This document shows positions 1,330 to 63,547 of a DNA stretch of 64,000 nucleotides, piece after piece. The stretch spans positions 1,312,001 through 1,376,000 of the forward strand of contig CAWKDC010000001.1 in the NCBI GenBank assembly GCA_963848305.1, read 5' to 3'. Under the pieces are notes generated by a model that saw only the letters and a list, made by a program, of their open reading frames with translations, was not told the DNA's origin and searched no databases. This DNA is from an uncultured Gammaproteobacteria bacterium (lineage in GTDB: Bacteria; Pseudomonadota; Gammaproteobacteria; JABCZS01). The position numbers were made by a program, and so were the translations under genes. Position 1 is the stretch's first letter, and every line of letters begins with the position of its first letter.

Positions 1330-3322
1330 TTATTCATTGCCCAATAAAGCACGCAATGCGAGCAGGTGATCTTGGGCGCCTTCAACATTACGGCTGTTGT
1401 TGCCTGCTTTACCAGGCCAGTCGAGCAAAGACGCATCCATTTCATCTAAAAAGCGGCTTGGTTCAATACATTGGTTTTCTCCCTGACGCCGACGTTCTTT
1501 GCAGAATGACAGCGTCAAACGGGATTTTGCGCGTGTGATACCCACATAAGCGAGACGTCGTTCTTCATCGAGCGAATCTTCTTCCAAAGCGGTGCGATGC
1601 GGTAATAGATTTTCTTCGACACCGACCAAATAGACACTTGGAAATTCAAGGCCTTTCGCGGCATGCAATGTCATGAGTTGTACGCGATCTTCTGCATTGT
1701 CTTTGTCTTGACGTTCCAGCAAATCATAGAGTGATAGTTTTGCGACCAGCTCGTCAAATGAAGGTGCGGGTTCATCTTCTAGCATGCGCCCAATCCAGTT
1801 CACCAATTCCCAGACGTTTTCCATGCGCTGTTCAGCAGCTTTGGGCGTATTCTGCGTATCGTATAAATAAGTTTCATAATCGATCGCTGCGATCATGTCT
1901 TTGATCACACCCAACGTGTCGCCACGTGTGGCGTTGTCTGCGGTATAGATAAGCCAATTTGAAAAACGTTGCACCGCTTCAATCGAGCGTGCGGGTAAAT
2001 GTTCGCTCAGTCCCATTTCATGGCTCACATGTAATAAACTTTTTTGGCGCATTTTGGCATATTGCGCCAATTTCTCAAGTGTTTGGGGACCGATTTCACG
2101 TTTAGGGGTATTGACGACACGCAAATAAGCGCAGTCATCGAGAGGATTGACCATGAGTTTTAAATAAGCCATGATGTCTTTGATTTCAGAGCGCGCAAAA
2201 AAAGATTGGCCACCTGATATTTTGTAAGGGATTTGATATTCACGGAGCATTTTTTCAAAAGGGCGTGATTGGTGATTCCCGCGATACAAAATAGCATAAC
2301 TGTCGTAGCGTTCGCCTTTTTGCAGTCGATGGCGGATCAAATCCATCACGACTTGTCGGGCTTCATCTTCTTCATCGCGCGTGGCGATCACGCGGATTTT
2401 GTCGCCTTGGCCAATGGCGCTCCATAATTTCTTTTCAAAGACATGCGGATTATTGGCGATGACTTGGTTGGCGGCCGTTAAAATGTTTTGTGTGGAACGA
2501 TAATTTTGTTCGAGCTTAATGATTTTCAAGTTGTGAAAATCTTCTGCTAATTTTTTTAAATTATCAGGGCGTGCGCCTCGCCAGGCATAAATCGATTGAT
2601 CATCATCGCCCACAACGGTTAAACGTCCTGAAGGGACCCACCAAGGCTTTTACAAGTTCGTATTGTGCGATGTTGGTGTCTTGATATTCATCAACCAATA
2701 AATAGCGAATACGGTTTTGCCAGGATGCCCGGACATCTGCATCTTGGCGCAGCAGCTCGACAGGGAGTTTAATCAGATCGTCGAAATCGACCCCGTTATA
2801 AGCCCTTAAATGGCGTTCATACGCCGCGTACAAGATGGCTGCGGAGGTTTCCGTCCCGTTTTGAGCGACATCAAGCGCGCCTGTAGGTGTGACGAGCCCA
2901 TTCTTCCACTGGCTGATCAGGTGATGTATATAACCCAAATCATCGATGCTGGTGCCGCGCACCGCCAATTCTTTCAGTAAGTTGAGTGCATCTTCTTGAT
3001 CAAAAATGCTGAAGCGAGGATTAAGGTGGAACAGTGCGGCATGTTCTCGGACAAAAGTGAGTCCCAGATGATGGAATGTAGAGACTTGTAAGCCACGGGG
3101 AGAGCCCTGCAGGACTTTGCCCAGCCGGGATTTCATTTCTTGGGCAGCTTTGTGTGTGAAGGTTACGGCGTATATCTGATTGGGTTTGAATCCCTTGTCG
3201 AGGAGATGGGCGATTTTATGGGTGATGACACGGGTCTTACCGCTTCCTGCGCCGGCCAGAACCAGCAGGGGCGCATCGATGCACACGATGGCTTCTTGTT
3301 GTTGGGGGTTGAGTTTCGACAT
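1330..3322 (-). CDS. rep: ATP-dependent DNA helicase Rep (apparent frameshift near 2630, probably sequencing error)
   Basis: LNPQQ, LAGAGSGKT and DEYQDTN in the 5' ORF; VGDDDQSIYAWRGA, LEQNYRS, TLHAAKGLEF and EERRLAYVGITRA in the 3' ORF. Removing one base joins them. Confidence 0.9.
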
Positions 3323-3377
3323 GGGGGCATTATATAGATTGAACTTCCCATTGTCCATGTGTATAATGCCCCCCATG
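3320..3377. promoter_or_regulatory. back-to-back sigma70 promoters of rep and ABC-F, predicted leaderless
   Basis: Plus strand: TTGAAC-17-TATAAT-GCCCCCC-ATG(3375). Minus strand: TGGACA-17-TATAAT-GCCCCC-ATG(3322). No SD on either side. Confidence 0.7.
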
Positions 3378-61590: not shown

Positions 61591-61667
61591 AAATCTTTCG
61601 CAACTTCTCATTTTTTCGCTACACTCAGTGTACAATGTAGCGCGTCATTATTTATCAAGGTGCCATC

Positions 61668-63547
61668 ATGTCTAAATACAATGCAGAATCCATCGAGGTG
61701 CTTTCCGGGCTTGACCCAGTGCGCAAGCGCCCCAGCATGTTCACCGATACGTCCAGCCCCAACCATTTGGCGCAAGAAGTGATAGACAATAGCGTCGATG
61801 AAGCCAGCTCAGGGCATGCCAACCACATCTCAGTTATTCTTCATAAAGATAACTCACTTTCTGTTGCAGACAATGGCCGCGGCATGCCTGTCGATATTCA
61901 TCCGACTGAAAAAGTGCCCGGTGTGGAACTGATCCTCACTCGCTTGCATGCGGGCGGTAAATTCTCTGACAAAAGTTATCAATTCTCAGGCGGTTTGCAC
62001 GGGGTAGGGGTCTCCGTCGTGAATGCACTGTCAGATCGTTTGGATGTCGAGATCAAGCGGGACGGTAAAATCCATACCATGGTATTCAAAAAGGGAAAGG
62101 TATCACAAAAATTAAAATCGTCCGGGAATGTGCCCAAAAAAGAAACCGGGACAACAGTTCGTTTTTGGCCTGAGGCGTCTTATTTCGATCATCCCAAATT
62201 TTCGGTGACGCATTTAAAACATATTTTGCGCGCCAAAGCGGTATTATGCCCTGGCCTCACGATTGAATTCTTCGATGAAGCGCATAACGAACATCAAACA
62301 TGGCATTACGAAGATGGCTTACGCGATTATTTGAAAAGCACGCTCACCACGGAATTCTTGCCGAAAGAATTATTTGTCGGGCAATTGAAAGCAGCGGCTG
62401 AAACAGTGGATTGGGCCGTGGTGTGGCATACGGAACCCACAGAAACCATCAATGAGAGTTATGTCAATTTAATCCCCACGCTGCAAGGTGGCACGCATGT
62501 GAACGGTTTGCGGACAGGATTATGTGACGCAGTGAGGGATTTTTGCGAATTACGTAATCTTTTGCCACGCGGCGTTAAAATTTCGCCGGAAGATGTGTGG
62601 GGAAATCTCAGTTATGTTTTATCATACAAAATGCATGAACCGCAATTTGTCGGGCAAACCAAAGAACGTTTAAGTTCACGGCAAGCGGCTGCTTTTGTCG
62701 CGGGCGTGGTGAAAGATGCGCTCACCTTATTCTTGCATCAACATGTACAAGAAGGCGAATTGATCGCGTCTCTCGTGATTGAGGCAGCACAATCCCGTTT
62801 GCGGCAGGGCAAAGCGGTTGCACGTAAAAAAGTCACGGCGGCCAGCAATTGCCTGGTAAATTGGCAGATTGTACAAGTGAAGATTTGCGTTTGACAGAAC
62901 TTTTTCTAGTCGAAGGGGATTCTGCTGGTGGTTCCGCGAAACAAGCACGTGATAAAGAAATTCAAGCCGTTATGCCACTGCGCGGCAAAATCTTGAATAC
63001 ATGGGAAGTGAGCGGGCAAGATGTATTGTCTTCTCAAGAAGTGCATGATATTTCTGTGGCGATCGGTGTGGATCCAGGCAGTGATAAGCTCGAAGGATTG
63101 CGGTACGGAAAAATTTGTATCCTCGCTGATGCTGATTCCGATGGTGCTCATATTGCCACGTTATTGTGCGCATTATTTCTGAAACATTTCAGATCATTGG
63201 TGAAAGCGGGGCATGTGTTTGTCGCGATGCCACCGCTTTATCGCATCGATTATGCCAAAGAAGTATTTTATGCATTGGATGAGTCGGAAAAACAAGGTAT
63301 CTTTGATCGTTTAGAGGCTGAAAAAAAACAAGGAAAAACCACCGTGACACGTTTCAAAGGGTTGGGCGAAATGAATCCTTTGCAATTGCGCGAAACCACG
63401 ATGGCCCCAGATACACGTCGATTATTGCAATTGACGATCGAAGAAGAAAAAGCAACGGATACACTCATGGACATGTTGTTGTCTAAAAAACGCGCGGGCG
63501 ATCGCAAAACATGGCTTGAAACCAAAGGTGATTTGGCAGACGTATAA
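61668..63547 (+). CDS. parE: DNA topoisomerase IV subunit B (apparent frameshift near 62840)
   Basis: [65 protein letters not shown]. Confidence 0.96.

Follow-up and report, generated by a model that had tools for sequence, protein, structure and literature searches.

Sequence lesions at Gly-Pro-encoding GGNCC sites in a gammaproteobacterial genome assembly: motif-linked consensus errors and a probable modified word

Gene content of the window and census of its lesions

The DNA analyzed here, referred to as the window, is a 64-kb stretch of a gammaproteobacterial chromosome with a GC content of 44%, and the contig from which its proteins derive is 1,576,621 bp long. According to Pfam and NCBIfam profiles, it carries the housekeeping genes rep, smpB, trmL, hemB, astBDA, coaD, tatC, ubiEJB, hslVU, argS, and cca, as well as mpl, the group nnrD-tsaE-amiB-mutL-miaA, and parE-parC, together with a type VI secretion cluster comprising vgrG, tssJKLM, tagF, tssBC, hcp, and tssFG. 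The closest species-level genome is a metagenome-assembled genome, L001, whose HemB is 80% identical and which shares with the window the gene orders elbB-hemB-trmL and smpB-ratA-rnfH, while the matches other than L001 reach at most 63% identity. The subject of this report is a set of frameshifts and in-frame lesions that interrupt or alter many of these genes and that coincide with the pentanucleotide GGNCC where it encodes the dipeptide Gly-Pro (Table 1). GGNCC is the word of Sau96I-type systems and GGWCC that of AvaII/SinI-type systems. Taken at face value, the lesions leave 11 broken genes in 64 kb, including parE, hemB, miaA, rep, and three genes of the type VI secretion cluster.

The breaks were placed by aligning intact relatives to the DNA of the window. 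Family profiles fall into two pieces in rep, hemB, astA, tssC, and parE and are cut short in ratA, trmL, tssG, miaA, and vgrG. In this way all broken genes among the open reading frames (ORFs) with a family match were accounted for, and the total came to 13 frameshifts and 3 in-frame lesions. Twelve of the 13 frameshifts and all 3 in-frame lesions are at the motif, so that 15 of the 16 established lesions lie on, or at most 3 bases from, a GGNCC encoding Gly-Pro. Such sites occupy 43 of the 20186 dipeptide positions in the window, and the chance that at least 15 of 17 lesions would fall no more than one codon away from one of them is P = 1.6e-31. Seen from the side of the motif, 15 of the 43 Gly-Pro-frame GGNCC sites are affected, 12 of them being destroyed and 3 having an indel that adjoins an intact motif. 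Among the 15 motif lesions, 12 shift the frame, 13 alter the length, and in several more than one base is garbled; at most three lesions in the 64 kb (trmL, the first break of a hip-like gene, designated hip-1, and the second tssG break) are explicable as plain run-length errors. Homopolymer errors are nearly absent from the window, the remaining sequence of which is nearly error-free. A previous reading of the letters of this window, here called the original prediction, had listed 12 frameshifts and one substitution at or next to Gly-Pro, and all 13 sites were recovered where it had placed them. To these we add the in-frame lesions in astB and amiB, the second tssG frameshift, and a candidate at residue 16 of rep.

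Table 1. Established and candidate lesions in the window, with the sequence found at each
Feature	Position	Strand	Sequence at the site
rep, frameshift	2628..2638	-	One surplus base in CCCTTCA, directly 3' of intact GGTCC (GGT CCC = Gly-Pro)
rep, candidate in-frame lesion at residue 16	3269..3274	-	GCG CCC = Ala-Pro before LVLAGAGSGKT
ratA, frameshift	8390..8393	-	Four bases TCTG in place of the Gly codon, then CCA
hip-like gene, second frameshift	10110..10114	-	CCTGC for the Gly codon before CCT, two surplus bases
hip-like gene, first frameshift (hip-1)	10265..10269	-	GGGCG, the Gly-Pro codon pair minus one base
trmL, frameshift	11477..11485	-	One surplus T in a T run directly 5' of intact GGCCC (Gly-Pro)
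hemB, frameshift	12232..12238	-	GCGACGA, seven bases for the six of the Gly-Pro codons
astB, in-frame lesion	14329..14331	-	CAG (Gln) for Gly before CCA; VGPI becomes VQPI
astA, frameshift	17016..17020	-	GCCTT for the codons Ala-Gly-Pro; four bases lost
vgrG, frameshift	39949..39954	+	One surplus base at TGGTCC; GGTCC itself intact
tssC, frameshift	49960..49963	+	GCTG, four bases for the Gly codon before CCT
tssG, first frameshift	53730..53731	+	GA before CCA = Gly codon minus one base
tssG, second frameshift	53777..53783 (about)	+	One base lost in AAGAAGGCAG; relative without Gly-Pro there
nnrD, substitution	55658..55662	+	GAACC (Glu-Pro) for Gly-Pro
amiB, in-frame lesion	57123..57128	+	GCTGCC for the codons Val-Gly-Pro, three bases lost; AVGPK becomes AA-K
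miaA, frameshift in the P-loop	60559..60563	+	GCCTG, five bases for the six of the Gly-Pro codons
parE, frameshift	62841..62845	+	GCCAG, five bases for the six of the Gly-Pro codons

The claim that family motifs demand Gly-Pro at ratA, trmL, hemB, astA, tssC, tssG, nnrD, miaA, and parE is borne out, since relatives place the dipeptide at each of these sites. Among the lesions on the minus strand, that of rep splits the Rep profile at 236/233, and E. coli Rep aligns in two high-scoring segment pairs (HSPs) in different frames that meet there, at a point where homologs carry G-x4-[LF]T[VA]VGDDDQ. At residue 16 of the same protein, Gly-Pro is found in 95 of 128 homologs and Ala-Pro in 3 of 128, and E. 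coli reads TGPCLVL; it is uncertain whether the Ala-Pro of the window is a lesion, natural variation being the alternative. For ratA, a protein otherwise identical to that of the window (P0129) has LLEGPFKT, and L001 has GAA GGG CCT. In trmL, where L001 has TTT GGG CCT GAA (FGPE), the TrmL profile ends early, at 103 of 157. The hemB break falls where L001 has TAT GGC CCC TTC (YGPF) and E. coli has FYGPFREA, and [FY]YGPF is unbroken in 80 of 80 related loci. In the ast genes, P0150 differs from the AstB of the window in 1 of 247 residues (VGPI against VQPI), and P0133, 100% identical to AstA over residues 1-252, continues with FDAGPQLIAQ.

The gene that the original prediction called a hip antitoxin (9813-10452, minus strand) encodes one 212-aa protein in which a helix-turn-helix domain is combined with a HipA N-terminal (Couple_hipA) domain; the adjoining sequence gave no sign of a kinase domain, and a 20-residue remnant of the C terminus of the protein lies on the opposite strand at 11063-11122 (plus strand). 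Gly-Pro had been proposed as the outcome of the simplest repair at both of its breaks, and the relative P0166 (212 aa, about 90% identical) does carry it at both, in RGPVESKPG and RKGPSSF. At the first break, where the window shifts frame, P0166 has YKRGPVESKPG; at the second it has GRKGPSSFICEP, and the tblastn HSPs switch frame at 10109/10115.

On the plus strand, an intact VgrG (P0167, 570 aa, 60% identical) aligns in frame 1 up to the break and in frame 2 from 39953. It has HDSLLEPSSLMGK, that is, Glu-Pro and not Gly-Pro, and is in this respect the exception among the relatives; the Gly-Pro reading of vgrG (WSGPQSLMGK) derives from the downstream frame of the window itself. The GGTCC that had been reported as visible beside the rep and vgrG lesions is indeed there, with both junctions 0-3 bases away from the intact word. 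For tssC, P0137 and P0140 have NIRGPESGG and the TssC of Citrobacter has IRGPQAGG, the TssC profile being split at 286/287. An intact TssG (P0002, 72% identical) has RLRFGPLPC at the first tssG break and WLPTEQKGRFILSLL at the second, where the window shifts frame between WLPSEK and GSFILSLL; a run-length error and a garbled site are both conceivable for this second break. P0145 and P0146 differ from the NnrD of the window only by the substitution (1 of 272 and 1 of 229 residues, respectively) and read IVLGPGLAAD where the window has IVLEPGLAAD. In amiB, the otherwise identical P0163 has DPGAVGPKGTRE, against DPGAAA-KGTRE in the window, and this comparison overturned the view, suggested by the alignment with E. 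coli, that AAA-K is natural. E. coli MiaA reads FLMGPTASGKT, whereas the window gives VIFLM, then the break, then TGSGKT. For parE, the two closest intact relatives are P0127 (626 aa), 97% and 94% identical to the two pieces encoded in the window, and P0006. Of 120 ParE proteins, 110 were found to contain the motif LPGKL[AS]DC, and in all 110 it is preceded by xGPx.

Hidden lesions were also considered in parE by comparison with 116 homologs and were not upheld, three of the four odd residues being common to close relatives. At 63254-63256 (plus strand), ParE has Ala (GCC) against Gly in 114 of the 116 homologs, including P0127; there is no GGNCC at this place, and the Ala may be natural variation or else an error of a different sort.

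Intact and differently garbled copies in other assemblies

Whether the lesions are mutations or artefacts can be judged from other public contigs carrying the same genes. RatA, AstA, NnrD, AstB, and AmiB are all represented in JGI/IMG by otherwise identical proteins that are intact and contain Gly-Pro. Six JGI/IMG proteins, encoded on contigs of 1-5 kb and amounting to 1804 aa, show 6 differences from the window, 5 of them at Gly-Pro sites. These proteins contain nine Gly-Pro sites, of which five differ from the window, as opposed to 1 difference in 1804 residues outside Gly-Pro sites. The size of the contigs, 1-5 kb, suggests that they derive from short reads.

Copies from Logan and ENA assemblies of the same organism, on contigs of 2-11 kb, are instead broken at the same sites as the window but with other sequence, as judged at the protein level for parE, astA, tssC, tssG, astB, and amiB. 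Thus, the Logan copy of parE (P0126) is frameshifted at the same place and reads VTAHNCL against VTAASNCL in the window, the ENA copy of astA (P0134) has the tail AIS in place of AFS, and in the other assembly of tssC the second piece starts with another codon than that of the window. The ENA copy of tssG (P0001) stops at the first break with RLGF, whereas the window goes on with RLKFDH; the Logan copy of astB (P0149) is frameshifted at the codon where the window has Gln, and that of amiB (P0164) reads VAPKAPARK and is frameshifted. The Logan and ENA copies also err where the window reads GGNCC cleanly, namely, in astB at 14270 (P to S) and in astD at 15679 (G to R). At GGATCG, a sequence with GATC in it (42865-42875, plus strand), the Logan copy of tssK (P0159) diverges from the window, so that this assembly has at least one error outside GGNCC.

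Real mutations would be expected to match across assemblies and to spare parE and hemB. Because otherwise identical proteins are intact and the garbles differ between assemblies, the lesions are consensus errors at places where reads disagree, not mutations, and the genes are intact in the cell. This also upholds the original prediction in treating the lesions as artefacts tied to GGNCC. We deem it very improbable that they are real, whether through pseudogene decay or through damage of the strain at GGNCC, for example, by misrepaired restriction cuts. Nothing speaks for mutation beyond the deposited sequence itself and the presence under Logan of the exact NnrD protein of the window, Glu included; on the other side, essential genes (parE and hemB) are affected, otherwise identical proteins on other contigs are intact, other assemblies differ in sequence at the same sites, and a single difference in 1804 residues outside Gly-Pro sites is unlike a decaying genome. 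The consequences for users of the record are practical. An annotation pipeline would label the artefact-broken genes as pseudogenes, and genome decay might be wrongly inferred; the record needs polishing that takes the motif into account, or else a control from short reads or amplified DNA.

Origin of the errors at GGNCC

Motif-tied errors, inconsistent calls, and a clean and very long contig (its 1,576,621 bp being counted as a sign of long-read origin) lead to a reading in terms of modification-induced nanopore errors. According to our analysis, the lesions are best explained by native nanopore-type long reads from a genome modified at GGNCC, and we hold this to be probable. The DNA of the organism would carry a base modification at GGNCC, most ordinarily 5-methylcytosine (m5C) or N4-methylcytosine (m4C), placed there by a Sau96I-type methyltransferase whose gene would lie outside the window. 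In the nanopore, native DNA marked in this way would give a distorted signal, a basecaller untrained on the mark would return inconsistent bases at GGNCC, and about one third of the Gly-Pro-encoding GGNCC sites would end up miscalled in the consensus, through small indels, substitutions, or garbles of several bases. What the sequence comparisons show is the link to the motif and the artefactual nature of the lesions; platform, modification, enzyme, and chemistry are elements that we infer.

This explanation has two close precedents. In nanopore assemblies of Enterobacteriaceae, errors at the Dcm motif CCWGG (Wick, Judd and Holt 2019, PMC6591954) are reported to make up about 70% of consensus errors with default models, are attributed to a basecalling model untrained on the modification, and disappear with a matching model or with signal-aware polishing. 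As in that report, one short methylation motif dominates the consensus errors of the window; unlike in it, the word concerned is GGNCC, both platform and modification are deduced, 12 of 15 lesions shift the frame, and about one third of the in-frame sites are affected. The second precedent is that of Listeria, with modification-mediated errors at GCAGC and GCTGG (Chiou et al. 2023, PMC10687267), where basecalls are described as inconsistent at modified loci within conserved pentanucleotide motifs and the errors as vanishing after amplification (demodification) or homology-based correction. The window resembles this case in its pentanucleotide motif, its inconsistent calls, and the possibility of reading the motif from the positions of the errors. 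Within what that report relates, however, the errors are mostly mismatches (1533-5670 per genome), indels not being the cause, whereas indels and garbles prevail here, and our comparison with intact sequence was made by protein from other public contigs. The specificity itself is not without precedent, m5C at GGNC*C being a reported specificity (MicrobeMod preprint) and GGNCC and GGWCC methylation being described as common in Lachnospirales (PMC11954522).

Several observations weigh against this explanation, at least in its simple form. Scans of the window ORFs (74 by NCBIfam, 32 by Pfam) gave no match to a methyltransferase, a restriction enzyme, or dnd/dpd-type genes; Sau96I-type methylation has the same palindromic word, and the lack of such a gene among the scanned window ORFs is compatible with an enzyme whose gene is located in another part of the genome. 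Only about 35% of the Gly-Pro-frame GGNCC sites are affected, and the remaining 65% or so are clean. We found no convincing flanking context or middle base separating affected from clean sites. The two classes look alike, TTT GGC CCA TTG being clean in astD and TTT-GG?-CCA-TTG affected in tssG; the choice of Gly codon before Pro at clean sites is the same as overall usage, and affected sites have a purine after CC somewhat more often than clean ones do (6 of 10 versus 8 of 31, counted by hand and with no statistics applied). The reading frame matters as well. Coding GGNCC sites are affected in the Gly-Pro frame in 15 of 43 cases and in the other frames in 0 of 21 (Fisher P = 0.0012; assigning the second tssG break to another frame gives 0.0067), and frameshifts at other-frame sites in family-matching genes could not have escaped detection. 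Since a mark on DNA should be blind to frame, this confinement to the Gly-Pro frame counts against a simple modification, and the uniform behavior of GGNCC with respect to middle base and frame that would be expected of a Sau96I-type restriction-modification (R-M) system is not what we see.

The same observations are the ground on which a context-specific fault of the basecaller or polisher around GGNCC or GGN-CCN, with no modification at all (arising, for instance, from bias in the model or from the palindrome), has to be considered, and we regard such a fault as unlikely. It would accommodate the frame bias, with 0 of 21 other-frame sites against 15 of 43 Gly-Pro-frame sites affected, the roughly 65% of Gly-Pro-frame sites that are clean, and the scans of the window ORFs without a modification gene. 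However, the GGNCC-encoded YGPF of hemB is read clean in 80 of 80 related loci, which indicates that GGNCC is not error-prone in general, and some of these loci have contig names hinting, as far as names can tell, at long-read assemblers. The affected word is moreover a short palindrome of the kind that type II methyltransferases recognize, m5C at GGNCC is known from the sources cited above, and no extended context that separates affected from clean sites was found.

A modification might, alternatively, be limited to the narrower word GGWCC, of AvaII/SinI type, in which case the trmL and hip-1 lesions, which are at GGGCC or GGCCC, and the second tssG break would be run-length errors. We consider this variant of the modification reading to be possible but doubtful. 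A or T is present in 12 of 12 destroyed motifs, seven of which contain CWG (CTGCC four times, CAGCC, GCCTG, and GCCAG), and where the middle base is legible (tssG, nnrD, rep, and vgrG) it is A or T. The frame bias is softened under this model, because 16 of the 21 spared other-frame sites are GGSCC (Fisher P = 0.042), and no other 5-mer of the window is as strongly under-represented as GGWCC (observed/expected, 0.28). Yet several comparison loci are equally depleted in GGWCC, the Logan copy of astD errs at a GGCCC site (15679), the trmL and hip-1 lesions become coincidences, and GGWCC is read cleanly at 10 Gly-Pro-frame sites and at 5 other-frame sites.

The lesions are also harsh. Frame shifts, losses of up to four bases, and garbles go beyond what is described for the mismatch-dominated Listeria case (PMC10687267), a further point against the explanation. 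The original prediction had taken the severity as a possible hint of 4mC or of something more unusual than 5mC, and an unusual modification is conceivable on this ground. If GGNCC or GGWCC bore a bulky, double, or backbone modification and not a single methyl group, the garbling of several bases at once and the loss of as many as four would be accounted for, m5C and m6A usually giving single mismatches, although a factor linked to the Gly-Pro context would be needed in addition; we rate this as improbable, more so than a context-specific fault.

The abundance of the word was examined as a possible sign of restriction pressure. The window contains 58 GGNCC sites, against 135 expected from dinucleotides (observed/expected, 0.43), whereas L001 is at expectation. 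In 25 loci with a GC content of 0.38-0.50, however, the pooled ratio is 0.55, with a range of 0.22-1.10, and outside the Gly-Pro frame the density is 0.41 per kb in the window compared with 0.55 in the pool. Avoidance of GGNCC as a mark of restriction pressure was dropped, these loci of similar GC content being equally depleted; since the depletion of the window lies within their range, it gives no support for an R-M system. If GGNCC is the modified word, as we think probable, the error pattern is useful in itself, since it would point, independently of signal data, to the word that an uncultured organism is likely to methylate. Both the class of artefact and the methylation word are already known, and the scientific interest is modest unless the modification turns out to be unusual.

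Other features of the window

The RNase P RNA gene (class A) is full-length at 33371-33719 (minus strand, 327 bits), and its two GGNCC sites are both clean. A transfer-messenger RNA gene, sought as a possible damaged gene, was not found by ARAGORN or Rfam beside smpB or elsewhere in the window. By smpB, the region 8639-9800 contains three short overlapping ORFs with no family match and is unlike L001. Within the type VI cluster (39784-53964, plus strand), no match to tssH/clpV or tssA was obtained among the scanned ORFs, and the ORF at 51099-51458, in the position of tssE, had no Pfam match.

A 1604-aa ORF at 20226-25040 (plus strand) lies in a low-GC stretch, with 35% against 44-48% in the surroundings. 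It had no Pfam or NCBIfam match, and an Atlas search yielded no usable lead. The ORF is convergent with ubiB and overlaps its 3' end. UbiB itself (24946-26301, minus strand) is about 65 residues shorter than that of E. coli and lacks the C-terminal hydrophobic part. A motif lesion at GGGCC (24975) was considered as the origin of this C terminus and rejected, because no frame continues downstream; the shortening may instead be linked to the neighboring low-GC insertion.

Finally, a 75-nucleotide tandem duplication in two copies, 85% identical to each other, spans the end of mpl (37679-37828, plus strand). Copy 1 contains GGTCC in the last mpl codons, and copy 2 has GGGCCC at the equivalent place.

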